DNA of 64,000 nt, from positions 3,104,001 through 3,168,000 of the forward strand of contig CM000150.2 in assembly GCA_000004695.1 (NCBI GenBank), read 5' to 3'. A program made the translations under genes and the position numbers. The DNA is from Dictyostelium discoideum (taxonomy: Eukaryota). The number at the start of each line of letters is the position of its first letter. The first letter of the stretch is position 1. Below the pieces are notes generated by a model. The model ran no database searches. It was not told the DNA's origin and saw only the letters and a program-made list of their open reading frames with translations. Below are positions 6,201 to 25,922 of the stretch, piece after piece.

Positions 6201-7553
<1,353 letters not shown>

Positions 7554-7623
7554 ATTATAACTTAATTGAACTTTTTCATTATTATTACTATTGGTTGTTG
7601 ATGAATCATTTACCTCTATTAAT

Positions 7624-7627
<4 letters not shown>

Positions 7628-7692
<65 letters not shown>
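7628..7692. repeat. Poly(dA) tract of about 60 nt in the divergent intergenic region between the transporter gene and the family gene at 8632.
   Basis: Seen directly in the sequence. Confidence 0.95.
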
Positions 7693-7694
<2 letters not shown>

Positions 7695-8631
7695 TGTCAG
7701 GGTTTGTGTTAAATGAAAAAAATAAAATAAAATTTAATAAAAATAACATACCTATTCCCGATCCCATTTTTTATATATTTATATCTATTATTATTATTAT
7801 TACTTTTATTTGTGTTTTTTATTATTTTTTTTTTTTCAATAGTTTTGTTACTTTTATTATTTTTTTTTTTTTTTATTAATGATTACAAAGAAAAAAAAAA
7901 AAATCTGGGTCAAAAAATCTAAAAAAATTGTACAAGTGTGCAAAAATTATTTTGTGTATCGTGTATAAGTAAAAAAAAAAAAAAAAAAAATTAAACTAGT
8001 TTTTATTTTTATTTTTTTATTTTATTTTATTTTTTTTATTTAATTAAATAAAAAGAAATTATTTGAAGAAGTTGGCAACTGAAAAAAGGAAAAATAAAAA
8101 AAAAAAATAAAAATTTAAAATAAAAAAAGAATTTTTTTTTTTTAAAATTTTTTTTTTTTTTTTAGATATTTTTGAAATGGAATTTTCGTTTCCCGCTTCA
8201 AAGAGAAAATTCTAAAATCTGTTAAAAAATAGGAGACGTCAACCCGTTTTGATCTTTTTTTATTTATTAAACAATAATTTTTTATAATTCTTTTTAAACA
8301 AACAATACTTTTATAATCCAAAAAATTATTTTGTTTAATTGTTATTATTTTTGTTTAAGCAATTTTTTTTATTTTTTTTTTTAATTTTTTTTTTCTTTTT
8401 TATTTTTATTTATTTATTTTTTTTTTTTTTGACCATGTGTTTGTGATTATTTGTTAAAAATTGATTGCAAAAATTAATTTAAAAGAAAAAACTGCAGTGT
8501 TTTTAAACACAGAGGCTGTGCCAATGTAAGTTTTTTTTTTTTTTTTTTATTTTTACAATAAAATTGTGAATATTTTTTTTTTTAGATTTTTTAGATTTTT
8601 TTTTATATTATAATAAAATACCAAAATTTAA

Positions 8632-9076
8632 ATGGAGAAGCAAATAAAGAATGAAAAATTATTTTGGTCAGTTTATAAAAATAAATTTTTAAATGGAATA
8701 ATTTTTAAAAGATCAGAATTTAAATTTTCAGCATATACATACAATGAAATGAATAGTGTTGAGTGGATGATAAAAAATAAACATTTTTCATTATTAAAAG
8801 AAAAGATTATTAGAAATGATAGAAATTTAAATTTTTTTTTAAAGTGTCCATCCCGAATGAAACCAATTAAATGTCAACAAGAAATTTTCAAACATTACAA
8901 AAACGATACAGAATTATTTTCAAATTTATTCAAATATTATAAAGATGACAAATATCTATCACAATTAAATTTAAAAGATTTAGAAAATCATTCAATTGAT
9001 TATGATAATGTAGCATTATTTAAAGTTTTAATAAATGAATTAGGATATTGCTTAGATAATGATAATAATAATAATA

Positions 9077-9158
<82 letters not shown>

Positions 9159-10887
9159 TGATGATAATGATGACGATGATGTTGGTAATACTATGAAAAT
9201 ATTTTACAAATCTATTTATTCTGGGTCATTTGAAATTGCAACTTTTTATATAATTATAATAATAATAATAATAATTATTTTAAAAATCAAAATAAAATAT
9301 GGATTGATACCAATTGGATATAAAAAGTGATCCGAAATTATAATGAAAAAGGTTGATTTCTATTATTCAATAATTTCAAAAGCAATTCCAAAATTTTCAA
9401 AAAGTGATGATAGAGGCGTTGTAATTAAGGATTTGTCAAATCCAGTATTATTTTCAATATCAATTCATTCTTGTCAATTATCATTCATTATAAAATGTTG
9501 TAAAACAATATCATTATTATTATTGATAAATGAACAATCAGAACAATTCAAATATTCAAAAAATGATATCATTGAAATTGAACAATTAAAACAATATGAA
9601 ATTCCAGATTTAATATTTACAAAAGATGAATTAAATTTTAAAATTCAATCATTTGCTTTTAAAAATACAATAGTTCAAAGATTATATAAAATGGTATTAT
9701 TATTTTCAGATTCTTCAAGTCATTCAAATATTGCATTTTATCAAATTAAATACTATGGAGAAATTAATAATAAAATTTATACACATATTTTTAAACCTCA
9801 AAGTTTTGGTTATTATATTAGTGGATTTAAAGATTACAAAACTAATTTATTAAATGAATATTTATTTGAATATTGTAGATATGATAGAAATGAAAGAATC
9901 ATACCATTCTTTAAAGATGCAATCAAAGAAATATTAAATCCATCAATTGATAAATCATTAAAACCAACTAAAAATTTATTAATTAATTATGCAATAATTT
10001 TAAATGATTTGGAAATTTTAGAAATGGTTTATAATAAATTATTCAATATTAAAGGTGATGGTGATGGTGATGATGATCATGGCAATGATAATAATATCAT
10101 TTTATTAGATGAAGTTTATTATAGAAAGGATGTTAAAATATTTGATTTCTATATTAATAAATTATCAGAACAACATAGATTACAAATATTGGATAGAATT
10201 GGTGAGAATTATACATTATCTACTCATTTTAAAAATAATTATCCAATTTATTATAAAAATGCATTACCTCATTATAACCATCCATATCAAGACCAATTGT
10301 ATGTATCAAGATTTTTAACTGAAAATTATAAAGATGTACCAATAAATAACAAACATTTTAAAAACAAATTTGACATTACAAAAAAGTTTCCATTCATAAT
10401 TCACAGAAGTTTATTCATTGATTTTAAATTACCACCATCTAAATTAACATATTTAAATGAAAATGGAACTGAAATTGAATATGAAATTCCACCATACACA
10501 TTACACCAAAATGGTTTTTTATCGGGTATAGCTCATCAATTAAATTGGATTTTAAAATATAGAAATAAAGATATTGAAGATGGGACATTAATAATTACAT
10601 ATGATTTTATATTATTAACTCAATATTTTAGAAATAATATTGAAGAAACCATTTTAAATGATATCAATTCATATTTTAATCAAAAACATGTTAGTCCAAA
10701 AATTTTAAATTTTCTATTAGAAGAAATCGCCAAAAGAGGTGATATTGAAACAATTGAATTCTTAATTAACCAATTTAAAAATAATCAACAATTTTTAAAT
10801 CATATAATTAATCATTCAAAATCAATTTCATTAACAACACCAATTAACCAAATTGATTTTTATAATTATTTAAGTAATAAAAATTAA
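8632..10887 (+). pseudogene. Disrupted paralog (copy 1) of a Dictyostelium-specific multigene family. It is homologous end to end to the intact copy at 12884..15058, but carries compensating frameshifts at about 9243-9310 and an in-frame TGA at 9328-9330. It contains an (AAT)n-encoded poly-N tract at about 9060-9160.
   Basis: ORFs 8632..9330 and 9343..10887 share a frame and are separated by a single TGA. Around 9243-9300 the alignment to copy 2 (YLFNNYFQDILLKEQPESINTLWNEAIGY) is found only in an alternative frame (FLYNYNNNNNYFKNQNKIWIDTNWI). No intron of plausible size rescues the frame. Confidence 0.5.
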
Positions 10888-11279
10888 TTTTTATTTTTTT
10901 TTTCAATTCAATTTATTTTTTCATTCACCAAACAAAATAAATTTTAAACTATTTATTATTATAATATTATTATAATATTATTTATTTATTTATTTTTAAT
11001 AATAACTAAAAAAATAAATAAAAAAAATTGATTTTTTTTTTTTTTATTTTTAGGTCGTGGTACCACAGTGGGTTCTAAGTGTTGTAAATAAATGGTCAAC
11101 CACAGTTTTTTTTTTTTTTTTCGAAAATAGAAAAATGTTGAACAACATAAATTATAATTTTTTATTTATTTTTTAAAAATTAATTTTTTTTTTCTTTTAA
11201 ACCTTTTTTTGACCGTTTTATTACTCTTTCCGATCCAATATTTGAATTGTTTAAAGATGACAATGAATTTTAATACAAT

Positions 11280-12620
11280 TTATTTAAAAATTATAAAGAT
11301 AATCAATATATTTCCAATTTGACATTATCAGATTTAGAAAAATTTTCACAAAAAAATGATAATGTTGCATTATTACAAATATTATTAGAAAAATCAAAAG
11401 ACTATATCAATTTAAAAATTTTTTATAAATTCGTATGTAGTGGTGCAATAAATTCATCAACCTATTTATACAATAATTATTTTAAAGACTATTTCATTAA
11501 TAATCAACCTCAATCAACAAATAAATTATGGTATGAGGCAATTGGGTATAGTCAAATTTAAATCCAAAACTTCACTATGGGAAAAGAAATTTTTGTATTA
11601 AGAAAATTATAATAAAAAAGTTGAATTTTATTTAAATATCATTTCAAAATAAATTCCACCATTTTCAAAACATTTAAATATTAATCCTAAAATTAAATTA
11701 CAAATGACTCATTTGGGTAACCCAATCATATTTGATTTATCAATTCTTAAATTAAATTTAATTCAATTAATTATTAACTGTAAGACAATGTCATTATTAT
11801 TATCATCACCAACTGAACAACCAGAATTCAATTATTCAAAGAATGATATTATTGAAATGGAAGAATTAAAGCAATTGGAAAATCAATTCACAAATAGTGA
11901 ATAAATAGTAAAGTATCATCATTTAGTTATAAAAATGAAAAAGTTAAAATATTATTTAAAATGATGTTACCATTCTGTGGTAATATGCAATATGATCATA
12001 CAAGAATGGGTGAAATACCAGAAAGTAATTCAGTTTTGTTTTATCAAATGAAATATTATGGTGAAATTAATGATGTTTCAAAAAAAGAAAATTTAACTAG
12101 TAGTTTTGGATATTATGATAGATATTTTAAAAAGATATTTTTATTTTCAAAATTATTATACATGTCCTTTAAAATATTGTTTGAATGAAAGAAGAGTTAT
12201 ACCATTCTTTAAAGATGCAATTAAAGATATAATAGATATATCAATAGAAAGCAATTTAAAAATTGAGAGAAAAACTTTAATTCTTTGGATGATATTAAAA
12301 TAAACCAAATAAAAAAAAGTGTTTTAGAATAATTAATAATAATAAAAGAAATAATAATAATATTGATTTAAATTTTCAACAAAATCTTTATGATTTTCAA
12401 GCATGAATTTATTTGTTGTATAATCTGGTATATATTTACACTTTTTATTTGTATCAAAATGGAATTTGTAATGTAAAATTGACTTTTTATAATCAATTGG
12501 ATAACTATTCTTGAAGTTGGATCCAACTCATCATTGTAACAATTTTCATGTAAAATAAGTTCATCACCAACATCTTTTTTGTTACGTTTATTACTATTGT
12601 ATAATTGATTATAAACCATT
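11280..12620 (+). pseudogene. Fragmented third copy of the same family. Plus-strand ORF fragments (11319..11561, 11704..11904, 11961..12188, 12106..12303) align in order to successive segments of the intact copy. The next homologous segment (the MVYNKLFNIKGD... region) is present inverted on the minus strand (ORF 12368..12619).
   Basis: Protein-level similarity was read from the ORF track: LWYEAIGY vs LWNEAIGY; NEQPEFQYSKNDIIEMEQLKQ vs TEQPEFNYSKNDIIEMEELKQ; NERRVIPFFKDAIKD vs DERIIPYFKDVIKE; minus-strand MVYNQLYN...DELILHENCY...FYITNSILIQI vs copy 1 MVYNKLFN...NIILLDEVYY...FYINKLSEQHRLQIL. Confidence 0.55.
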
Positions 12621-12883
12621 TGTAAAATTTCAAAATCATTTATAAAGATTGCAAAATCAATTAAGTTAAAATAATTAGTGTGTATTATTTTTAACTTTTT
12701 CTTTTTCTTGGTTTTTTTTTTTTTTTTTTTAGTTTTATTTTCAAAGCCTATGCTAAAACAATAAAATAAATAAATTTAGAGAAAAATCACTGAATTTTTT
12801 TTTTTTTTTTTTTTTAATTTTTTTTATTATAATTTTTTTAATAATTTTTTTTTTTTATAACCATTATTATTTTAAAAATTAAA

Positions 12884-15058
12884 ATGGAAAAACAAAATGA
12901 AAATTTATTTTGGTCAGTTTTTAGAAATAAATTTTTAAATAGATTAATTTTTAAAAGTTCAGAATTTAAATTTGGAGTTTATACATACTATGAAATGAAT
13001 AATGTTGGTTGGATGATAAATCATAAACATTTTTCATTACTAAAAGAAAAGATTATCAGAAATGATAGAAATCTAAATTTTTTTAATCACAACAATGATT
13101 TGTGTAGTAAATATCCAATATTTAAATATTTCAAACAAGACACAGAATTATTTTCAAAATTACTCGAAAATTTCAAAGATGAAAAATCACTTTCCCAATT
13201 GACTTTTTCAAATTTTGAACTTTTAGCACTCAAAAATGATAATGTAGCCATGTTATCAGTTATAATTAACCAATTCAAACATTATTCGGAATTAGAAACA
13301 TTCTATAAAGTTATTAATATTGGATCTATAGAAATTGCAACTTATTTATTTAATAATTATTTTCAAGATATTCTATTAAAAGAACAACCAGAATCAATCA
13401 ATACATTATGGAATGAAGCAATTGGATATCAACCAAATATAAAATCAAAATATAATAAAGAGTTTATTTTTACAAATAGTGAAGAAGTTTATAATAAAAA
13501 AGTTGAATTTTATATAACAAATATTTCAAAGGTGATACCACCATTTTCATTGAATTCATATACCAACTCACCTACTCCAATAGAAATCAATCAGTATGGG
13601 AATCCAACACTATTTGGTATATCAATTTATGAACTTAGTTTAAAAAGAATAATTAAATGTTGTAAAACAATATCATTTTTATTATCAGCAAATGAACAAC
13701 CAGAATTTCAATATTCAAAAAATGATATCATTGAAATGGAACAATTAAAACAATATGAAATTCCAGATTTAATATTTACAAATAGTGAACTAAATTCAAA
13801 AATGCAATCATTTAGTTTTAAAAATACAATAGTTCAAAGATTGTATGAAATGGTATTATTATTTTCAGATTCTCCAGGTCTCTATAAACCATCAATTGCA
13901 AATATTGCATTTTATCAAATGAAATACCATGAAGTGTTCAATAATAAAGATTATAACAGAATATTCAACCCTCAAAGTTTTGGTTATTTTATTGGTGTAT
14001 GTAGTAATACACCTGGTCTATTTTTATTAAATAATATATTTGAATATTGTAGAAATGATAGAGATGAAAGAATTATTCCCTACTTTAAAGATGTAATTAA
14101 AGAAATAGTAGGTTCACCAATAGATAAATCATTAAAACCAACTAATAATTTATTGACAATTAAAAGTATATTAATAAGATATGCAATCATTTTAAATGAT
14201 ATAGAAATCATTAAAATGTTATACGACAAGTTATCAATTAGTTCATTAGATTGTATTACTTTAGTTAGAGGTATAGGTTCTGGAATTGAAAATATTAATT
14301 TTGATGTTAAAATATTCGATTTCTTTTTTTATAAATTAACAGAGAGAGAGAGATTAAATATAATCAATATCATTATCCAAAATTATCAACTAATAAACTA
14401 TTTCAAGAATAATTATCCAATCGATTATAAAAAGTCTGTTTTAAATTACAAATTCCCATCAAAAAATAATAATTATTTACCAAGATTTTTGTGTGAGAAT
14501 TATAAAGATTTTGTAAATAAAGAGAATGAAATTAAATCAAGATTTCAAGATTTTATTTTTAGAAGGGTATTTTTTGGTTACAAATTACCAATCGTTTTTA
14601 CTTTCCCAAATAATGAAGGTATTGAAGTTGAACTTAAAATCTGTCCATATAGACTTTATAACTATAAGATGGTGTCATCAGTTGCCCCTCAATTAAATTG
14701 GATCCTACAATATAGAAGTCAAGATATTAAAGATGGAACATTACAAATCACATATGATAAAATATTAATAACTCAATATCTTAGAAATAATATTGAAGAA
14801 ACCATTTTAAATGATAATAATAATTCATATTATCAACAAGAAAGTGTGACTCCTTCAATATTAAACCATTTATTAGAAGAAATCGCCAAAAGAGGTGATA
14901 TTAAAACAATTGAATTCTTAATTGATCAATTTAAAAATAATAAACCATTTTTAGATCATACAATAAATCATTCAAAATCTTTTTCATTGACAAACAACCA
15001 AATTGAAATTTATAATTATTTGGATAACAAAAATTTATTAAATAAATTCATTTATTAA
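12884..15058 (+). CDS. Intact member (724 aa, single exon) of a Dictyostelium-specific multigene family of unknown function (N-terminal MEKQ.ENLFWSVF.NKFLN; conserved KCCKTIS, EQPEFQYSKNDIIEMEQLKQYEIPDLIFT and ILNHLLEEIAKRGDI motifs).
   Basis: Long uninterrupted ORF. It is a paralog of 8632..10887 and of the fragments at 11.3-12.6 kb. I do not recognise any characterised family. Confidence 0.7.
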   Translation: MEKQNENLFWSVFRNKFLNRLIFKSSEFKFGVYTYYEMNNVGWMINHKHFSLLKEKIIRNDRNLNFFNHNNDLCSKYPIFKYFKQDTELFSKLLENFKDEKSLSQLTFSNFELLALKNDNVAMLSVIINQFKHYSELETFYKVINIGSIEIATYLFNNYFQDILLKEQPESINTLWNEAIGYQPNIKSKYNKEFIFTNSEEVYNKKVEFYITNISKVIPPFSLNSYTNSPTPIEINQYGNPTLFGISIYELSLKRIIKCCKTISFLLSANEQPEFQYSKNDIIEMEQLKQYEIPDLIFTNSELNSKMQSFSFKNTIVQRLYEMVLLFSDSPGLYKPSIANIAFYQMKYHEVFNNKDYNRIFNPQSFGYFIGVCSNTPGLFLLNNIFEYCRNDRDERIIPYFKDVIKEIVGSPIDKSLKPTNNLLTIKSILIRYAIILNDIEIIKMLYDKLSISSLDCITLVRGIGSGIENINFDVKIFDFFFYKLTERERLNIINIIIQNYQLINYFKNNYPIDYKKSVLNYKFPSKNNNYLPRFLCENYKDFVNKENEIKSRFQDFIFRRVFFGYKLPIVFTFPNNEGIEVELKICPYRLYNYKMVSSVAPQLNWILQYRSQDIKDGTLQITYDKILITQYLRNNIEETILNDNNNSYYQQESVTPSILNHLLEEIAKRGDIKTIEFLIDQFKNNKPFLDHTINHSKSFSLTNNQIEIYNYLDNKNLLNKFIY

Positions 15059-15126
15059 TTGTAAAAGTAAAAAAGTTTATTCAACTATTTTATTATTTTA
15101 TTTAAGTATTTATAATATTTTTATAT

Positions 15127-18124
15127 TTATTTTTTTTCAGATTGTAGAATACCTCTGATATCAGTATTTATCCAACCTCTTTGTTTTACTTGCGAGGCTT
15201 CATTATCTGACCACATGCAAACTCTACCAGTAATATCACCAGTATAGAATTTTTGTTGATCATTTGTTAAAAATATTGAAGTTATAGCTGTTGAATGTGA
15301 TTGAGAGTTTGAAAAAGTTGCTCTAAGAATAATTACATTTTTGAATTTTAATTTGTTGTTATTTGTTGAAGGAATTTGAGTTGCATTATTATTATTATTG
15401 TTATTATTATTATTATTATTATTTGAATTATTATTATCAGGTAATAATCTTGTTTCTAAACCCCAAACTTTAACTTTACCATCTCTGTGACCTGTTAATA
15501 ATACATTTTCACCTAACCACTCAGGACCTTTTGACCAAATACAACAAGTGATTTGATCATTAGCGATTTGTGAAGTTTTATAGTTGATAAGTAATTCACC
15601 ATTGACGGTATAAACAGATATTGTTGTACCAGAGCAAACTACAATTTCACCAGTTGTATCATGAATACCAATACAAGAGATTGGACCTTCATGAGCATCT
15701 AAACTACGGACATAACAAAGTCTATTTAAATCCCAAATGATACAAGTACGATCATCAGAACCACTTACGATGATAGAATAAGGACGAGAGGCGGATACAC
15801 AAGTGATTGAACCAGTATGACCTGATAGTCTCTTGGCCAAGGAGAATCTCTTGAGATTGTAAACACAGATTAAACTATCACTACCACCACTTACACAAAT
15901 ACGACCATCTTCAGTGGCTGTTAAACAAGTTAATGGACCATCGTGATGATCCTCTAAAACTTTGATCTTATCACCAGTGTTGTAACGAATTGAGCCATCA
16001 GGTAAACCCCATAACATATATTTTGAGTGATTTGGTGGTAAGAGTACCTTATTGAAACCGACACAAGTTGCACGATCATTGATTAAACGAATTTGACCAA
16101 CTGGTTCACCGATATCCTTTATGAAATTACCAGTTAACGCTTTTGCGTAGAATGGTAAACCCATTAAGGTGGCATTACGTTTTGGATGTGGTTTATCAAA
16201 GAGTTGTTTTGGAGTTTGACCAAAGTTATTAATTTGAGCAATGGTTGCAGCCTTTTCAACGGGATCAGAGATTGCATCAATATTTACGGCACCTTCATAA
16301 GTTAGATAATAGAAAACATTCAAAGAGTCATCGGCTGCTTTACCTTGTTGACGATAACCAAAGATTAAATCGATCCATTCATGAAGATGTTCAGAGACAT
16401 AATCGGATTCCAATGCTTTACGATGAAGTTTAATGAATTCCTGTGGCGAACCTTTTGCCCATGGTGGTAAGATAATATCATCGATTGGTTCACCGCCTTG
16501 TTTTGTACCGAAATTGAATTTATTATTATTTACCAAAAATTCATCCAAATAATAGAATTCAGGAATTAACTCCATTACCACACCAGTACTTCCTTGTGAT
16601 GATGATGCCCAAGCCTCAGTGATTGAACTAAACAAACGATCAGGTTGATCCCATCTGCCACCTTGAAGTTTAAGGAAATGTTGAGTGAATGGTTCTAAAC
16701 GAATTAAATAATAAAGTACGATAGCGGCTGAACTATAATGTGTACCATAATGGAATTTTGGTACTTTATGGCCATGTTCATTTGGTTCTTGATCATCCCA
16801 ATTCTCGAAACGTTCTCTAAACTTTTGAGCTCTACTCTCTTCTAAGGCACCCATTGGTTTTGAGAGATCACGATAAACCTTTGGATCATCAATATCCAAT
16901 TCTTCACTTTCATAGTCACTCAATACCCAAGGAAAAACTGGATACTGTGTTAAATCATTATAGGAACGACCTGCCAAAGTGTTCAAATGCATTAGATATT
17001 GGAAATTTGAGATTTGGCCTTGTTGCCATTTCAATGTTAATGGTGATTTTCTCCAAATCGAAGTGAAACGATCTCTAACGCCACGACCTCCTCCACCACC
17101 ATGATGATCATCATTGTCGTCATTACCAGTTTGACCACCAGTAATACCTTGTGCATCACCACCAATTGTATTATGAGAGGATACATTATTGACCAAGGTA
17201 TGATAAACTTCATCACGGGTTGGTTCATCACGATAGACTACAAGATTGTTTCTACCATCGGTTGAAAAGATTTCCAATGCAACTTGTCTTAAAAGGTATC
17301 TTCTCTTTAAGACATCACGGATATCTTCATAAGCCCATTTCAAAAAGTAATGAATGATCTTCTTTTTCATTGGTAAAACAGTGCCCTCTGGTAGCCATTC
17401 AGAGTTTATCTTTTCTTCAACTTCACTAATATCACCAGTGTTTTCATCCTTATAATAACCATCGAAAATATACATATAAACTGGACAGAAAATTAAAATA
17501 CCTTCAATCTTATCCATACCATCAACACTACCACAATTGTACATAATACCATTTAAACGTGGATCTTTTCTCATTGCATCCTTTAAATAACTTTGATCAT
17601 ATGGATCTAATAATCTAATGAATGCTTGAGTTTCATCTTCACTTGTTGTTTGATTATTTGTTGATGTTTCTTCATCAACTTCATTTGTATTACCTGTTGT
17701 TGTTGTTGCTACTGATGATTGAGTAGTTGGTGTTGAAGTTGTTGTTGTTGTTGTTGTTTGAGTTGATGGTGGAGGTGGTGATAATGTTGTACTAGCACTA
17801 GTTAAAGAAGAATTTTCTTCAGAAATTGTAGATGAATTATCATTAAACAATTCAGAAGATGATGGATTACGTGATAATTGACCCTCGACTGTTGATGATT
17901 GTAATTTTGGTGATTTAAATACATCTTCACTTGATGATTGTACTGGTGAAGTTGGTGGTGTTATTTCATTTGATGATAGTTCTGGACTACTAACTTTAAT
18001 TTGAGATGATGATTGTTGTGGAGTTGTAGTTGTTGTAGTATTAGATGATGATGATGATGTTGATTGATTCATATTATTAGCATTATTATTATTATTTGCA
18101 TTTTGTGAAGTTGATTTTGTAATT

Positions 18125-18183
<59 letters not shown>

Positions 18184-21100
18184 TGTAATTGAAGAAGTAT
18201 TAGTTGAAGAAGTAATAACTTGATTAGTTGATAATAAATCAAATTTCCAATATGAAGATTCCAATAGATTAGCTTCTTCAGTACCAACGATATTCATATA
18301 AGTTTCAGAATCTGCAGAACATGGAATTGGTAATAAAGAGTTATTTTGTTCATCAAAAGAAGGTGGAACATAAGGATAATTCTTATAGAAATTATAGTTC
18401 TTTTCCATTTTCTTTCTCATACGATATGGACCTTCAGTTGAATCCAATTTCCATTTATCAAGAGGATGAGGTTCAGAAGGACCCCAAACAGCACGTTCTC
18501 TTGTGATTTGAGCTCTCATATTTTCCCATTGAATTGCATTGAATTTTTGTTTATCACTTTCCAATTGTTTAATTTTCTTACGACGATCACTTTCACTACG
18601 AACGAAATATTGAGCTTTCTTGGTGATATGTTTAGATTTCTCTTCTTGATGAGATTGATCCTTACGATCTTGACGTTGTTTCTTTGAGAGTCTTTCAGTT
18701 CTACGTGATTTCAAAGATGGTAATGTATGTTCTGAAGAATGTTTCTTTTCATTATTTTTAAAGGATAAATGTTGTTTCTTTGGATTCTCTTCAAATACTT
18801 GAGTTATGGTTTGAATATTATCATTAATCCAAAGTTTAAATTCATCATTATTGAAAGCACCATTACCCGAAGTATTACGTAATAATTCAAAGCCTGGTTT
18901 CAAATCAATGATTTCACTTTGACGTTGATTTGAACCACTTGAAACTTTTAATTGTAGTACCGTGGCAAGCGACTCAATATATGATGAAGTTTTCAATGAT
19001 AGTAATAGCCTCCAAAGTTTAATTGAATTATCTACATGTTCATGCTGATCGCTAATTACCAACTTGTACAATGGATAACAAAAAGCATTCATAAAATCTG
19101 AATCCAAATTATTCTCTGAAAAGATAATTCTTTGATGATTTATAATATGATTTGCAACAAAAGATAAATCAGTATCAGTGGTATGATTGATTAAATATAG
19201 AATGATACGATTTAAACTCTTGTATAGAGATTGAACTGTTTTTTGAAGACCAACTCTATCGGCCTCCAATTTCTCTAAAATCTTTACAATGAATAAAAAG
19301 ATTCTCTTTGCAATGATGATTTTATTATTCTTTACCAATTGATCCAAGTTTACTCTATCGACCAACATTGAAGATAACTTTATGAGATTGGAATGAACAC
19401 GTTCATTATCAAAGAACTCGGTCTTGGTGATATTGGTTTCAACGACATACATTAAATCAAGTAAAATTCTTGAATGATATAAAATAAACTCTTCATCTGT
19501 TGCTGTTGTTGGTGCACCCTCTAATACCATCTCAATGATACTAATTGCCTTTGAAGTTTTTCTCATTGCTGATAACATAATTTGACAAAGGAATTTAACT
19601 ACTAAATCCAATACTCTATCTTTGATACCATTGGTTTGACCTGTACTATTATAAAGTGGTGGTAAATTAATTTTACCATTTGGGAATAGAATTGAAATTA
19701 ACTCTTCAACCATTGGTTGACTATAACATTCTTGTTGGAAATATTGATTCTCATGAAAGAGATAAATGAAATAAGTTAACATTGTATATTGTAAATTTGA
19801 CGATTCTTCTGGTGTTGCAAATTGTGATATCTTTAATTCTGGTAACATTTCATCATATAAATTAAAATTAATTGGTTGATTATCACCAACACTAACACCA
19901 CCACCACCACCACCACCACCACCACCCAAAGCACCATTCAATTTTGAGTCATCATCCATACCAGTAACTCTGTTATGTAAACTTGAACCATTTGGTGTAT
20001 TTGTAACACTATCATCACCACCAGTACCTAAATTTTTAGATTGGAATGGACTTGATTGAATACTCATTCTATTCTTTTTCTTTAAAGCTGCTTGTTGAGC
20101 ATCAGTTGCACCTGTACTATTTTCATCGATTGCACCTGTTGTAACTGCAAATTCTAAAGTTTTCTCTTCAAATTTATTCCATAAATTACCAAATTTAGTT
20201 ATAGTTGAAGCTAATCCACTAGTTGGTGTATTATTATTATTATTACTATTACTACTATTAACTAATGTTGATGATGAAGATGATGATGATATATTTGATG
20301 AAATTGAAGAAGATGAAACTGATCTTGAAATTGTTTGAAAAGTTGATAATGGTGAATTACTATTGTCATTATTATTAATACTATTATTTATATTTACATT
20401 TGAAATTAATGAAGATAATAATTCATCATTGTCTAAACCTTGATTTGCATTTTGAAGTTCTTGTTGTTTTTGTTCTAAATATTGATAATTATCTTCATAA
20501 GATCTTTTAATTAGGGAAAGTATTAATTGAGCAGCTTCGATACAATATAAACTCTTTTCAAAAGGAGTAAAAATTCTTAAGAGTTCATGGAATACAATGG
20601 TTGTACCACCAGCACCACCAGAACTACTTGATAAATCTAAATCTACCAATAATTTTGGATCGCCACCCAAAAGTAAATGTAATAAACATAGATAGATCTC
20701 TTGATGACCTGATAAAGATGGTAATACCTTTTCCAATAGTTTGAAACCACTCTTTTTGATAAAGGTTGAACAATAGTCGTATTTATATAAAAAGAAGATA
20801 CAAGTCACACGTAAAGCCAATGAAACTGTCAATGGTGGTAAATTTTCATCAATGAAAAAGAAACACCAATACGATGATACTCTTCTAAAGATTGCTGCAG
20901 TCTCTTGAGTTTGACAATTTGAAACAACCTTTAAGAATGTATAAAATACATGATTAACCAATTGAATGGTTGCAGTATTTGATAATTCCATAGTTGCTAA
21001 TTTACTACGATGAATTGATTTTCTTCTAGAGGATGTCGATGAAGTAGAGGATGATGACGATGATGATGATGGGGTTGGTATATCTTTATGAAGATGTGAA

Positions 21101-22603
21101 ATTAAGAAAGCAGATATTTGTCTAATATCATCTTCAATTAAACCACCATAGGATAGTATATTATAAAGTACATTGATTACCGAGGAAGCAACCGATTCAG
21201 GTAATGGCTCTTCATTTGTTGAAGATGAAAGTATATCGAAAATCTCTTGAATTACATTAACCTTTCTAAGACTATCAATATTGAAACGACGTTGAATATT
21301 ATTTACGATTAAACTATTGTAACCATTAATAACATGACGTTGTAATGCGGGTGTTGTTAATCTCCAAATATCCCAATTCATCATAATATACTTACAAGCA
21401 TTCCAATTGGCAACCGTACCCTCTTGTGGTGCTCTAGAGGTGATTGTTGTTGAACAATTACCATTGATACCAATTAAATCAAATAATAACTCTAAAATAT
21501 TACTATTGAAAAGACCAAGTGATGCTTTCTTTTTCAAGACCCAAGCCAAAAGTTCATAACCATTAATTTGTGACATTTCATGAGTATTGGTTGGATGATA
21601 TTGAATTAAACCAACTAATAAACCTAATGAATCGAATAAAGTCTCTTCAGAATTTGCCTTCTCTAATAATAACAAAGAAATTGGCATACCACCAATCTTT
21701 TTAATACTATCTGCAACTTTATTTCTTCTAAATGCTTCAACACTTCCAATTAATACACCTCTTAATTTTGTAGTTAAATCCGCTTGATTTATAATTTCAA
21801 CTCTACCTTCTAAATCTTTCTTTGAGTTTGAACCACCACTATTATTGTTATTATTATTATTATTTTGTAAACCTGTTAAATTTGGACTTGTACCATTTGG
21901 ACTTGAAAAAACATTTAAAGCAACACCATGATTTTGTGAAAGCTCATTAATTATACCATTGAATATTTCATTGTATACAACTTTACTACTATTATTTGTA
22001 CGAATTAATTTATTTGATGCACATAAACCAACGAGGATCTTATTCTCATCGATTTGCATTGAAACCTTTGCTAAATTCAAAGGACCCAATTGATCACCAT
22101 AATCTAAATCTTTGATTGCCATTAAATTTGCTGAATTTACAATTTCATAAGTTTGATAAGGTGAGAAACGACCCTTGAAATTACTTGCATAGTTTGGACC
22201 TAAAAAGTAAATAGTATTGATATGTTTTGCACCCAAAGAATCCTCCAATAAATAAAATGTACCAATTCTCCAAATTGAATCGGTTGGGAATCTATTTTGA
22301 TTTGAAACACCAATATCACAAATTAACATTGAACCAGAAGTGATTTGAGCAGGATATTGTGCTTTCGTAGCTGTATATTTTAAGAAACCATCAACAAACA
22401 ATTTAAAATCTGTACCACCTAATAATCTTCTTGCATGAACTATACCAATATGATACCATTTACCTTCAACAAACTTGTAAGATGGTATTTCAATTACATA
22501 CTTTGAACTATTAATTATATTAACCGTTATAATACCATTTTTTAAATAAATATAAAGTGATGATTTTTTATCATCTGAATAAATATGTACTAAATCAATT
22601 TGA

Positions 22604-22640
<37 letters not shown>

Positions 22641-24034
22641 TATTACTATTATTACTATTATTACTACTATTATTATTATTATTATTATTATTTACAGTTG
22701 GAAATTTATCAATATATAACCAAAACATAATTGTATAACCATTTGTTGGTGGCCAAGCTCTTTCAGTTATTGGTACACGAATATAACCAAATGGTATTTT
22801 TGATAAATTAAATTCGAAATAGGGTGGAGTTGGTGGTGATTTTGCCATTGATGATAAAATTTTTAAGAGTACTTCTGGTGAATGTTCAGGTTGTAATAAT
22901 TTTACAAATTGACGTAACTCTGAACCTGATAAACAATTTGCACCAACAGTTTGAATTAATGACAATAACAATGGTTGTAATGGGTCATTAGCATTTGATA
23001 AATTTGAAGGGAATCTACTCAAGATCCAATCTGGAATTGATAATTTCGATAGGGCCTCTTGATTATATCTACCGTATTCAGCCATTTTATTAATTCTACT
23101 TATGATTTGTAATCTGAAATCTTTATTCTCAATATGTGGTATAATGTCAAGTATCACATTAAAAGACTCGACATTATTAATGATCATTTGATTTGAGATT
23201 TGATCGGATGCATTTAAATTCTCTGTAACCATATCGAATATGAAATCAACAACTGATTTTGAAAACTCTGTACCCAATACACCAGTCATAATCAAACAAG
23301 ACGAAAATGTTTTGTAACCAATTTGTTGCTCGAAATTCTCTCTATTAATGACATTACCACAAAGTGCACTCGTTGTACATCTACAAATCGATTCAATCAA
23401 TTCCAATTTCTCCATATCCCAATTTCTTGAATCTTTTCGGTTTGGAGAGAATGATGACTCTAAACTAATGAAAACACTAATAATCGATACGAATCCACCA
23501 TGTTCTCTAAATGAATCTCTTGCATGCTTTGATATATTAAATAGTTTTCTAGTTGCATTCAATATATCACTCTTCATTGGATAATTCTCTTTGTTTACAC
23601 TTGTCAATACTTTAATTAATCCATCAAACTCTTTTTGTGTTGGTTCTGGGTCATACTTTATTAATTGTTGTAAAATTCTTAATGATTTACCTCTAACACT
23701 TGAATATGGTAAAAATCTTAATAATATATTAAATATTGAACTAAAAGTAATAAAAATAAATATATTAATATCTATCTATAAAATTTAATATGATTGATTA
23801 TTTAAAAAAAAAAAAAACTTACAAACTTCTAATTAATGAAATATTATCAGGATTTTCAGAAATTAAAATGAATAAACTATCTAATAAAATTTGAAATGAT
23901 TCAACTTTAATAATTGAATTTAAGGCTTGATCATTAGAATCGGCTTCTTTTTCACCATTGCCTGTCATACATGGTACAATTGGTCCATTACTACCACTAC
24001 CATTTTCTTCATTATTATTATCGTTATTATTATT

Positions 24035-24106
<72 letters not shown>

Positions 24107-25922
24107 TTCATCATCATCATCTATTTTTTTACTATTATTTAATCTTATTATATCTTGAGCAATAACATCAATTACTTTTACTAAAATATCCAATAAACCA
24201 GTCTCTCTAAAAATATGCTTATATCTAAATTCAAAATTAACTAATGTAGTTATCAATTGATTTATCATTTCTAATGTATAAAAAGATGGATTCTCTCCAA
24301 CTAATAAACTAAATGTACTTAATTCTTGAAATGGTACACAATTTAAAACTGTAACTACAAAACAAACAATTTTCATAACATGATACTATTAATTTATTTA
24401 AAAAAAAATAAAAATAAAAATAAAAAAAAAATAAAAAATAAAAAAAAAATTAAATAATTAATTAATAAACAAAAATATATAAAGAATAATGATTAAATAT
24501 AAAAAAATATACCTTTAAACCATTACTTAATGATTCATATTCTTGAATAAATTTAGTTAATGTACTTGTATGTTGAAGTAAAATGAAATTTACTGTATTT
24601 GAAGAATAAACTGATAAAATTCTATCTAAAATTTTAACTCTATTCTCTTCATAATTTGATTTTAAAAAGTATCTTTCTAAAACTTTAAATGCATTACCAT
24701 TCTTTGAAATATAATTTTGATCTAATAATAAAAATTATAAAATTATTAATAATTTTTTTTTTTTTTTTTTTTTTAAATTTTCAAAAAAAAAAAAAAAAGA
24801 CTTACTTGAAATTTCTTTTATATTATTAATTGAAGTTTGATATGGTACTGAAGAATTTTCAACTGGTAAACTAACATTACCATAACCAATATAAACTAAA
24901 GAACAAATTGAATCTAATAATTGTTCGAATAAAGCTGGTTTATCTTTTGAAGATTCTAAACGAAATAAAGAATCCACTAAAAATGTATAACCATCATTAC
25001 GTTGAAATTCATCCAATAGAATAGTTGATTTCTTTGAGGATTCACTCAAGATCTTTATGATGATTCTACAAAGTGTTACATAGGATTCTGGTGTAAACAT
25101 ATAGTAGTTTGTAAGATCCTTTATAATGTTTGCAATGACACGTTTCGAGTTTATATATGTGATGGTAGGTGGATACAAATCGGTCAATTCTAAACCGAAT
25201 GAGCCAATCTTTGCACGCAATGGTCTATGAGAGGGCGGGCATTCGTTGGACATTAAAGCAAACAATGTCGAGAGAGTATCTGTTTTTTGTAGTTCCTCAA
25301 TGGCCGATTTCTGTTTAGAGAGGAAACAAAGTGTACGAATCAATTTCTCTTCAATGATCCCTTTAGTTGTCTCCATCATTGTTGTATAGGGTACCAAAAA
25401 GAAGTACTGTAAACAACGCACCAACATCGAGGGTATGGAGGCCTCTGCCATGGCTTCGGCGCATGATGTATTCGATTCCGATAGAATCTCAATGGAATAT
25501 AGTAATTCGAAACCTGATACTTGTCCACTTGTGGTTGAAAAGAATTTATAAATCTCTTTGGCTATCGTCTCTTTAATGAGTTGTGGTGGTTGTGGTGGTT
25601 GTTGAGGTGAGTTGGCTTGTTTCATTATCTCATTGATATCTTTAACTAATCTACGTGAAATTGCAAATGAAAATGATTTAGAATTATTTCCAAAGATATC
25701 TACCATTGGACTCTTTGTATCAATTTTCTTATCTTCGTATAAACCAATGAAATAGGGTAAAAGTTTATTCAATCTCATAACTTTATCCTTATCTGATTTA
25801 CTTGATAAAAATTCTTGCCATAATAATTTTAATTTTTGTGCTGTTGCTTGTGATCTAATAACTTCAACTTCACTCCCTATCATTATTGTCCAAACATTTA
25901 TATTTGATTCAATAATATTACT

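Follow-up and report, generated by a model that had tools for sequence, protein, structure and literature searches.

Evidence for the decay of an ancient tandem cluster in Dictyostelium discoideum AX4: one intact gene, one frameshifted copy and one remnant with a small inversion

Tandem gene families that differ between strains have already been described in Dictyostelium. In the tgr family (bioRxiv 10.1101/2025.10.22.684067), the number of tandem paralogues varies among strains as well as between sister species, and pseudogenes lie next to intact genes. Non-processed pseudogenes are a second point of reference, with lesions such as a missing promoter or start codon, premature stops, single-base indels, truncation and internal inversion. 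Here, we describe a locus on chromosome 1 of D. discoideum AX4 that resembles both. It is flanked by a UAA-type transporter gene and a BEACH-domain (lvsA-like) gene, has a G+C content of about 18-20%, and holds three tandem paralogues, copy 1 (c1), a middle copy (mid) and copy 2 (c2). A tblastn search with copy 2 revealed no further family copy in the window, i.e. the whole 64-kb stretch analyzed, and none of the papers in the library searched named DDB_G0269600 to DDB_G0269608. We consider it highly probable (roughly 0.85) that the locus is a cluster of three ancient paralogues in which only c2 is intact, mid has been destroyed and c1 has been frameshifted by a T6-to-T5 change. This reading is built on homology, orientation, breakpoints, lesions, presence in a second assembly, intact orthologues and copy-number differences, all of which were observed directly. 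Features are on the plus strand unless stated otherwise.

Intact family genes were present at the same position, between the transporter and BEACH-domain genes, in five other Dictyostelium assemblies, with two to four in each. Among these assemblies, intact orthologues were found for all three AX4 copies. The orthologous locus held two copies in D. citrinum and ACTFIY, three in ACTFIW and ACTFIR, and four in ACTFIZ, which had two mid genes (midA and midB), both in direct orientation. A synteny check in D. firmibasis placed the nearest relatives at a different locus, so the age of the cluster is not set beyond D. citrinum. We also used a de novo assembly, L006 (GCA_054883475.1), which was 99.93% identical to window positions 7673-25058. 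Its contig is 3.2 Mb long and not chromosome-sized; thus, it was not copied from the reference. The comparison assemblies were probably generated by Flye from Nanopore reads only, with Racon and Medaka used for polishing, if we infer correctly that their accessions belong to one study (bioRxiv 10.1101/2025.10.22.684067), and their single-base homopolymer calls are therefore not beyond doubt. Automatic gene models in the newer assemblies span the lesions by spurious introns or fusions (799-aa and 661-aa products).

In a neighbor-joining tree, c1, mid and c2 formed separate clades with 98-100% bootstrap support each; one D. citrinum gene fell within the c1 clade and another within the c2 clade. 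The paralogues are older than the split of D. discoideum and D. citrinum. Because D. citrinum genes fall inside these two clades, the AX4 locus records decay that is recent and specific to its lineage, not birth. We tentatively give mid the same age as c1 and c2 and assume its loss in D. citrinum and ACTFIY; the outgroup was placed in the tree with weak support (56%). An earlier note on this DNA had seen gene-family birth and death captured at the locus. Turnover was borne out by the shared clades, the two to four copies per genome, the independent mid pseudogenes of AX4 and ACTFIR and the recent mid duplication in ACTFIZ, but birth at the AX4 locus was not, as the duplications are old. This is ordinary gene-family turnover, and nothing in it alters the current view of genome evolution.

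Copy 2 (12884-15058) is the single-exon gene DDB_G0269606 (Q55DM2, XP_646109). The ORF list and an exact-sequence look-up agreed with the earlier description of an intact ORF of 724 aa, and c2 is the sole intact family member of the cluster in the AX4 lineage. The region upstream of it (12665-12883) has kept its original orientation, as the reconstruction of colinearity described below spans 12664/12665. Within this region, 12684-12781 is ancestral intergenic DNA that was kept in ACTFIZ and lost in ACTFIW and ACTFIR; the blastn match to the comparison locus L002 starts at 12684 and runs onward.

Copy 1 (8632-10887) is the orthologue of ACTFIW_009864 (P0006), which is intact and encodes 709 aa. 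Its identity to the gene at the ACTFIW locus (L001) was 86% for amino acids (tblastn) and 92% for nucleotides (blastn). When copy 2 was the query, tblastn matched 8632-10884 colinearly at 50% identity. From the sequence and the list of insertion lengths, the poly-Asn (AAT)n tract at 9056-9171 exceeded that of strain ACTFIW by 81 bp, with the frame kept. In the reference record, c1 consists of two ORFs in the same frame, 8632-9330 and 9343-10887, split by a TGA at 9328-9330. Compared with intact orthologues, the record carries five 1-bp indels, one deletion and four insertions. The alignment placed the deletion in a run of five Ts at 9245-9249, which is T6 in the intact orthologues, and the assemblies of three other strains have T6 in the same local context. 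It was the sole copy-1 frameshift common to the AX4 reference and L006. In L006, copy 1 had exactly one frame change, at L006 positions 6358-6367 (window ~9241-9250), and the upstream frame stopped after 243 codons. Adding one T to it gave an open frame of 750 codons without stops. By its sequence, copy 1 can be classified as a unitary frameshift pseudogene of the AX4 lineage. One T would have been lost from the T6 run, cutting translation after about 243 codons. Its inactivation was probably recent, because c1 has no other disabling change. No AX4 protein record for c1 or mid was present in the protein collection searched, and the disabled copies would presumably not be expressed as functional protein. 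Introns were rejected as a source of the copy-1 shifts: 9245-9310 lacks any GT, a single GT..AG pair surrounds the TGA and covers just 25 nt, and the orthologues are single-exon.

The four insertions in copy 1 lie in a patch at 9310-9435 (126 bp) that is private to the AX4 reference record according to the list of differences between the window and L006. It has single extra bases at 9310, 9322, 9334 and 9346, about 12 bp apart, and substitutions at 9382, 9429 and 9435; together, these are seven of the 13 differences from L006 across 17.4 kb. The patch gives rise both to the TGA, which is a by-product of the extra base at 9322, and to the return to frame. The four extra bases are missing from all six other assemblies, which have the other allele. 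Without these bases, the patch reads WIDTIGYKSDPNYNEKVDFYY, the same as P0006. As the patch is absent from the 99.93%-identical L006 and from every other strain, and seven of the 13 differences are concentrated there, the four extra bases and the TGA are probably errors of the reference record, likely in base calling. The patch could in principle be a real change private to AX4, if the L006 strain were a close wild relative and not AX4. We rejected Nanopore homopolymer error as an explanation for the differences at 9310-9346, since two of the four do not involve homopolymers (one C of a CC pair is missing, and a lone G is gone). The AX4 reference and L006 agreed on all 30 six-base runs and on 120 of the 122 five-base runs, both exceptions being inside the patch. 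The earlier note had described copy 1 as colinear, with two compensating frameshifts and an in-frame TGA, and had flagged possible sequence error near 9.24-9.33 kb. Copy 1 is colinear and the TGA is in the record, but the TGA and the second shift are missing in L006 and every other strain. Only one frameshift (T5) stays.

The middle copy can be regarded, from its lesions, as a dead remnant. Its colinear part (11216-12282), delimited by blastn and the lesion map and present with the same sequence in L006, corresponds to codons ~70-429 of ACTFIW_009863 (P0008), and it aligned to this intact L001 orthologue in forward orientation with 92% identity (blastn). By tblastn, it appeared as plus-strand fragments at 11235-11549, 11602-11901, 11901-12116 and 12169-12297, in alternating frames. 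Nonsense codons interrupt it at 11271 and 11650. Single bases have been lost at 11552, 11601 and 11901, one has been gained at 12125, and deletions of 3, 3 and 6 bp leave the frame unchanged. At its 5′ end, the blastn blocks and junction sequences revealed a deletion junction at 11214-11215, where about 530 bp (L001 ~9676-10203) were lost, including the upstream region, the ATG and the first ~68 codons. The mid gene of ACTFIR is also disabled, and it has no disabling lesion in common with the AX4 mid.

Next to the colinear part lies an inverted block at 12283-12664, which derives from an ancestral segment of about 1.09 kb. Its coding part (12363-12664, minus strand) corresponds to mid codons ~428-559 (L001 11282-11677) by blastn, block map and tblastn. 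Compared with L001 by blastn, 12363-12515 and 12521-12664 were 94.8% and 94.6% identical in reverse orientation. With copy 2 as the query, tblastn gave a minus-strand match at 12515-12363 (E = 5e-7), and the matches in the inverted part were in frames -1 and -2. The block is larger than the 83-aa minus-strand ORF at 12368-12619, which is a chance ORF in the inverted coding part. The distal part (12283-12362, minus strand) is intergenic DNA from the spacer between mid and copy 2 (L001 12260-12367), as found by global and local alignment; the local score was 46, against 22.3 ± 3.0 for shuffled sequences and 16 for the forward control. Two deletions lie inside the inverted block. One, of about 95 bp (L001 11429-11522), is in the coding part, and the other, of about 580-600 bp, removed the final ~165 codons together with the stop codon.

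At the left junction of the block (12282/12283), L001 11287 meets 12367; at the right junction (12664/12665), L001 11282 meets ~12368. When 12283-12664 was turned back, the sequence ran colinear with both L001 and L003 across the two junctions, as expected of a simple inversion. In the junction sequences, the hexamer TTAATT at 12277-12282 (L001 11282-11287) recurs reverse-complemented at 12659-12664, so that 6 bp overlap or are duplicated where the inversion broke. Very permissive blastn gave mainly AT-rich noise and was used for junction read-outs alone. We found no specific inverted repeats at L001 11287 or 12367, only low-complexity A/T runs. This argues against non-allelic homologous recombination, not against inversion. 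With no such repeats beside the breakpoints, the mechanism was probably a template switch or the repair of two breaks.

Several events destroyed mid, perhaps in the following order. A deletion of ~530 bp removed the promoter, the start codon and the first 68 codons. One inversion flipped ~1.09 kb, from codon ~430 to the spacer upstream of c2, and deletions of ~95 bp and ~580-600 bp occurred inside the inverted block. The colinear part gathered four 1-bp indels and a pair of nonsense mutations. The outline in the earlier note, with ordered plus-strand fragments of a third copy at 11.3-12.3 kb and a minus-strand homologous fragment in 12368-12619, agreed with the tblastn fragments and with blastn against reversed L001; the inverted match at 12.37-12.62 kb, which it had proposed as a test, was present in both searches. 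The small inversion that it placed at about 12300 was also confirmed, with the breakpoint refined to 12282/12283 and the extent revised to ~1.09 kb of ancestral sequence, including intergenic DNA, with three accompanying deletions.

Other readings of these data have to be weighed. Copy 1 might be intact in living AX4 cells if all five 1-bp discrepancies, including T5, were sequencing errors; the locus would then have two working genes beside a dead one. Four of the five are private to the reference record, the T run is just ~60 bp upstream of the patch, Nanopore assemblies can under-call homopolymers, and the frame is otherwise fully open for 750 codons. However, T5 was read independently in the Sanger-based reference and in L006, T6 was read in the three other strains, the AX4 reference and L006 agree on all five- and six-base runs outside the patch, and no AX4 protein is on record. 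We consider an intact copy 1 unlikely. It is far less credible that introns, programmed frameshifting or transcriptional slippage lie behind the frame changes and leave the copies functional. The genome is eukaryotic with short AT-rich introns, and the automated gene call in L006 does bridge the lesions to give the 799-aa product, but this model fuses c1 with a mid fragment. All intact orthologues are single uninterrupted ORFs, the c1 region 9245-9310 is coding in every other strain, and mid has no start codon, two nonsense codons and no 3′ third. A run of five Ts is also too short for efficient slippage.

The structure of mid could likewise be read differently. A mis-assembly of the AT-rich AX4 reference might be suspected from the low G+C content and from an error-like patch 3 kb away in the same record. 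However, L006 reproduced the structure of mid, differing at just one base between 11200 and 12880. Neither the inversion nor the deletions are therefore mis-assembly, and we rejected this explanation as having almost no chance of being right. The inverted segment might also be the remnant of a separate fourth copy, placed in opposite orientation and then eroded by deletions; copy number varies among strains, ACTFIZ has two mid genes and deletions are frequent at the locus. But both junctions join adjacent ancestral coordinates (11287/11282 and 12367/~12368), which independent deletions would not yield. Except for 6 bp, the inverted segment is nowhere also present in forward orientation, and both mid copies of ACTFIZ are direct. 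A fourth copy thus seems very improbable, and we prefer a single inversion within mid.

The dN/dS was 0.37 for c2 (against ACTFIW), 0.47 for mid and 0.62 for c1, with 20-46 substitutions per class. For the neighboring BEACH-domain gene it was 0.06-0.09 (0.06 against ACTFIW). The values of the disabled copies (0.47-0.62), based on few substitutions, were not clearly above that of the intact c2. These ratios suggest that c2 and c1 are under weak constraint compared with the neighboring gene. The cluster genes had no Pfam match. A profile search retrieved 34 relatives, and the ten that were looked up were all from Dictyostelium species. Ank_2 was matched by two of the 34 aligned family members, both distant ones. 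The weak PDB matches of the family profile were mostly ankyrin-repeat proteins and lay in its C-terminal third, with the best stretches at profile positions ~511 to 712. The AF2 model was all-alpha with a pLDDT of 84, and its fold matches were generic solenoid or ankyrin only. The family is thus predicted to consist of dictyostelid-specific, fast-evolving helical-repeat proteins that are distantly ankyrin-like.

The cluster might be imagined as a strain-variable, fast-evolving locus of conflict or recognition (bacteria, symbionts, or self/non-self), at which polymorphism of mid and c1, in presence/absence and as pseudogenes, would be maintained and non-neutral in wild D. discoideum populations. 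Its dN/dS is 5-10 times that of the neighboring gene, the haplotypes of the locus are deeply diverged (dS ~0.06-0.12 between strains labeled conspecific), and mid was inactivated independently at least twice. Duplication and gene conversion have also left signs at the locus. We regard this idea as doubtful, with a low probability.

The locus provides a base-resolved case of a lineage-specific cluster that is eroding, in which a one-base knockout adjoins a promoter deletion and a micro-inversion, and the intact orthologues of sister strains permit each erosion event to be reconstructed. In the AX4 reference, 9310-9435 appears to be a short patch of errors from which a stop codon results, and the copy 1 gene needs re-examination and probably re-annotation.

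In comparison with non-processed pseudogenes, c1 was 92% identical to ACTFIW_009864 and mid 92-95% identical to ACTFIW_009863 (nucleotide), with conserved synteny. Mid has no ATG, carries the inversion and misses its 3′ third, and T5 of c1 is present in two independent assemblies. Mid thus shows the usual lesions of such pseudogenes, and c1 resembles a pseudogene with a single lesion, its orthologue being intact in other strains of the species. The only rarer element is an inversion of less than a kilobase for which the two breakpoints are known to the base. Like ankyrin-repeat and other alpha-solenoid proteins, the family has a predicted all-alpha fold with helix-hairpin repeats, and UniProt gives the name 'Ankyrin repeat protein' to the AX4 relative DDB_G0284967. 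Unlike the tgr family, the cluster family has no Ig/TIG or transmembrane features, its polymorphism is known from a handful of assemblies, and its dN/dS values, being below 1, gave no evidence of diversifying selection. It shares with tgr the tandem paralogues, the copy-number variation among strains and sister species, the intact genes beside pseudogenes, and lineage-specific duplication (midA and midB of ACTFIZ), loss and probable gene conversion.

The 724-aa ORF at 12884-15058 (copy 2) was an exact match, by sequence look-up, to DDB_G0269606 (Q55DM2, XP_646109) of D. discoideum AX4, on what we take to be chromosome 1. The G+C content of the window is about 20%, and long poly-Asn and poly-Lys tracts are present. 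When the whole window was searched with copy 2 (tblastn), we recovered copy 1 at 8632-10884 (50% identity), four ordered plus-strand fragments of a middle copy between 11235 and 12297 in alternating frames, and a minus-strand fragment of it at 12515-12363 (E = 5e-7). These are only the elements that had been listed as a three-copy family, and the earlier observation is confirmed. On one side of the family is a UAA-type transporter gene, with an exon at 7098-7553, and on the other a BEACH/WD40 gene of very large size (15127-23607), which we take to be lvsA; both are on the minus strand. Amid the transporter-gene ORFs, a simple-sequence repeat of more than 200 bp (6893-7134) reads as poly-Leu, poly-Tyr and poly-Ile 'ORFs' in three frames, and a long A/T homopolymer lies at 7600-7700. 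We found no AX4 protein record for copy 1 or the middle copy, and none of the papers in the library searched mentions these cluster genes.

The comparison assemblies are probably those of a 2025 preprint (bioRxiv 10.1101/2025.10.22.684067), because the organism labels match. For that preprint, D. discoideum strains and two strains of cryptic species were sequenced with Nanopore R9.4.1 and assembled de novo in Flye, followed by Racon four times and Medaka once; D. citrinum is covered by its companion paper. This leaves conclusions about structure safe; single homopolymer calls of 1 bp in the comparison assemblies are less so. Locus L006 lies on a 3.2-Mb contig of another assembly, GCA_054883475.1, and encodes a protein identical to that of copy 2. 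Over 7673-25058 it matches the window at 99.93% identity (6 mismatches, 7 gap positions). Those gaps that lie upstream of the family are probably for the most part in simple-sequence tracts. Only one base, adjoining a T run, differs over 11200-12880; thus, the deletions, inversion and point lesions of the middle copy are independently reproduced. In this AX4-like assembly, a 799-aa gene call (L006 5753-8678) joins copy 1 to part of the middle remnant, and the pseudogenes thereby enter the annotation as one chimeric gene.

The middle copy had been described as ordered fragments followed by an inversion. The inverted segment is upheld by reversed blastn blocks and restored colinearity, but the rearrangement is larger than proposed and is accompanied by three deletions. 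Compared with L001, the ACTFIW locus, the colinear part (11216-12282) aligned forward with L001 10207-11287 (92%), while 12363-12515 and 12521-12664 aligned reversed with L001 11677-11525 (94.8%) and 11428-11282 (94.6%). Forward alignment picked up again at window 12782 (L001 12387). The junction sequences and a global alignment identified the 80 bp at 12283-12362 as the reverse complement of L001 12260-12367, a piece of the spacer that follows the middle gene (local score 46; shuffles 22.3 +/- 3.0; forward control 16). Together with the reversed alignments, this inverted spacer places the inverted block at 12283-12664. The block stands for ancestral L001 11282-12367 (1086 bp), with internal deletions of about 95 bp (L001 11429-11522) and about 580-600 bp (L001 11678 to about 12259), the latter of which cost the gene its last ~165 codons and stop codon. 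Reversing the block in silico gave an unbroken colinear alignment to L001 and to L003, the ACTFIR locus, across both junctions. The 6-bp motif TTAATT was found on both sides of the inversion breakpoint. We looked for a specific inverted repeat flanking the ancestral breakpoints and found none, which favours two-break repair or a template switch over homologous recombination. The 5′ deletion brings L001 ~9675 up against ~10204 at window 11214/11215; it removed ~325 bp of upstream sequence as well as the ATG and 68 codons. Also present in the colinear part are two nonsense mutations (TAT-to-TAA at 11271 and TCA-to-TAA at 11650), three 1-bp deletions (11552, 11601 and 11901) and a 1-bp insertion (12125).

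Four lesions disable the ACTFIR middle paralogue (L003 10001-12144): codon 122 has become a stop, 10 bp have been deleted, a single C has been inserted and an A7 run has lost one base. As 1-bp homopolymer calls are less safe, we counted as robust only the TTA-to-TAA change (codon 122), the 10-bp deletion (codon 509) and the C insertion, which is not in a homopolymer (codon 279). AX4 shares none of these three; therefore, the middle paralogue was disabled independently at least twice. In ACTFIW the middle gene is still open. The deposited ACTFIR protein of 661 aa bypasses the lesions, apparently via spurious introns.

Copy 1 (8632-10887) as recorded consists of two same-frame ORFs split by a TGA at 9328-9330. 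Of the 13 differences that separate L006 from AX4, seven crowd into 126 bp of copy 1 (9310-9435). Four are extra single bases in the reference record, spaced about 12 bp apart (9310, 9322, 9334 and 9346), and three are substitutions (9382, 9429 and 9435). L006 and all other strains share one allele against the reference at each of the seven sites. Removing the extra bases abolishes the TGA, and the DNA then gives ...WIDTIGYKSDPNYNEKVDFYY..., matching the intact orthologue exactly. Across 17.4 kb, AX4 and L006 agreed in 120 of 122 five-base runs and 30 of 30 six-base runs, both exceptions lying within this patch, which rules out a generic Nanopore artefact as its cause. It is very unlikely that the reference alone acquired a cluster of seven private mutations; most likely, a series of base-calling errors produced the patch in the reference record, and with it the TGA within the gene. 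The earlier note's reading of copy 1, with two frameshifts and an in-frame TGA, needs correcting: the TGA and most of the damage are probably reference error, and one frameshift is real.

The remaining lesion is a T5 run at 9245-9249 in AX4 and L006, which is T6 in ACTFIW, ACTFIR and D. citrinum. Beside it, AAT repeats have expanded by 12 bp in frame, so that the net difference from L001 is +11 bp. The L006 copy needs exactly one frame change, at this site; its upstream frame stops after 243 codons, and putting one T back gives 750 open codons. As the organism is eukaryotic, introns were considered first as the source of 'frameshifts', and one was rejected here because 9245-9310 contains no GT and every orthologue has coding sequence there. 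We consider it unlikely that T5 is a sequencing error too. From its sequence, copy 1 is best read as a recently inactivated pseudogene with one lesion. Its (AAT)n poly-Asn tract (9056-9171) is 81 bp longer than in ACTFIW, and the strains differ by 3-12 bp, in frame, in the length of several further repeats.

Neither copy 2 nor either copy 1 ORF had a Pfam match. Searching 1.8 billion representative proteins with a profile gave 34 relatives, among them AX4 gene DDB_G0284967 (UniProt name 'Ankyrin repeat protein'); the ten looked up were all from Dictyostelium species. Two of the 34 aligned members reached Ank_2. Matches of the profile to PDB were weak (all E >= 0.016) and mostly to ankyrin-repeat proteins, with the best stretches in the C-terminal third (profile positions ~511-712). 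A confident AlphaFold model from the 34-sequence alignment (pLDDT 84, pTM 0.78) was essentially all-alpha with one small hairpin. We therefore describe the family as helical-repeat proteins specific to dictyostelids, whose repeats may be highly diverged ankyrin repeats; it is at most a candidate for the Ank clan.

Between AX4 and ACTFIW (Nei-Gojobori), dN/dS was 0.37 for copy 2 (dS 0.079), 0.62 for copy 1 (dS 0.033) and 0.47 for the colinear part of the middle copy (dS 0.117), compared with 0.06 for the neighbouring BEACH-domain (lvsA-like) gene (dS 0.062). The family's proteins evolve far faster than that of this neighbour; the contrast between intact and disabled copies rests on few substitutions and is not decisive. 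Over 15127-23607, dS was ~0.06 between AX4 and both ACTFIW and ACTFIR. The tgr-family preprint (bioRxiv 10.1101/2025.10.22.684067) describes average sequence variation in D. discoideum as extremely low; for such a species the value is high, and it points to deep haplotypes at the locus or divergent lineages.

A protein search gave ten relatives, all unannotated and from new Dictyostelium assemblies, whose contigs carry the family at the same place; the transporter and BEACH-domain flanks were the same at all related loci fetched. ACTFIW has three uninterrupted genes (709, 725 and 720 aa), ACTFIR three, D. cf. discoideum ACTFIZ four, and ACTFIY and D. citrinum two each. The orthologue of copy 1 is P0006 (ACTFIW_009864), that of the middle copy P0008 (ACTFIW_009863) and that of copy 2 P0001. 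In a neighbour-joining tree rooted on two distant D. citrinum paralogues, the copy 1, middle and copy 2 clades received 100%, 100% and 98% support. The copy 1 and copy 2 clades each contain D. citrinum genes, so the duplications are older than the discoideum/citrinum split, and differences between lineages reflect later loss, decay and re-duplication.

In ACTFIZ, two middle-type genes (L002 6699-9074 and 10001-12253) represent a lineage-specific duplication. The last ~50 residues of one, midB, are 94% identical to the ACTFIZ copy 2 gene (66-72% in other such pairs), which suggests gene conversion between paralogues. In D. citrinum, a relic of ~50 C-terminal family residues (L005 14903-15064) lies downstream of the copy 2 stop and is positionally orthologous to the 3′ end of copy 2 in AX4 (window 14855-15058), a further trace of rearrangement at the locus. 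A non-syntenic tandem pair of distant superfamily members in D. firmibasis (L007 6828-9095 and 10001-12325) is 53% identical overall and almost identical over a ~100-residue block, a gene-conversion signature.

Apart from the corrections given here for copy 1, for the extent of the inversion with its deletions and for the age of the duplications, the interpretation in the earlier note is largely right. It saw gene birth and death captured together in AX4. As the duplications are ancient, the AX4 locus shows death and not birth, which is seen instead in the two middle copies of ACTFIZ. Although well resolved, the locus is an ordinary example of a tandem, lineage-specific family undergoing birth-and-death evolution and pseudogenisation.
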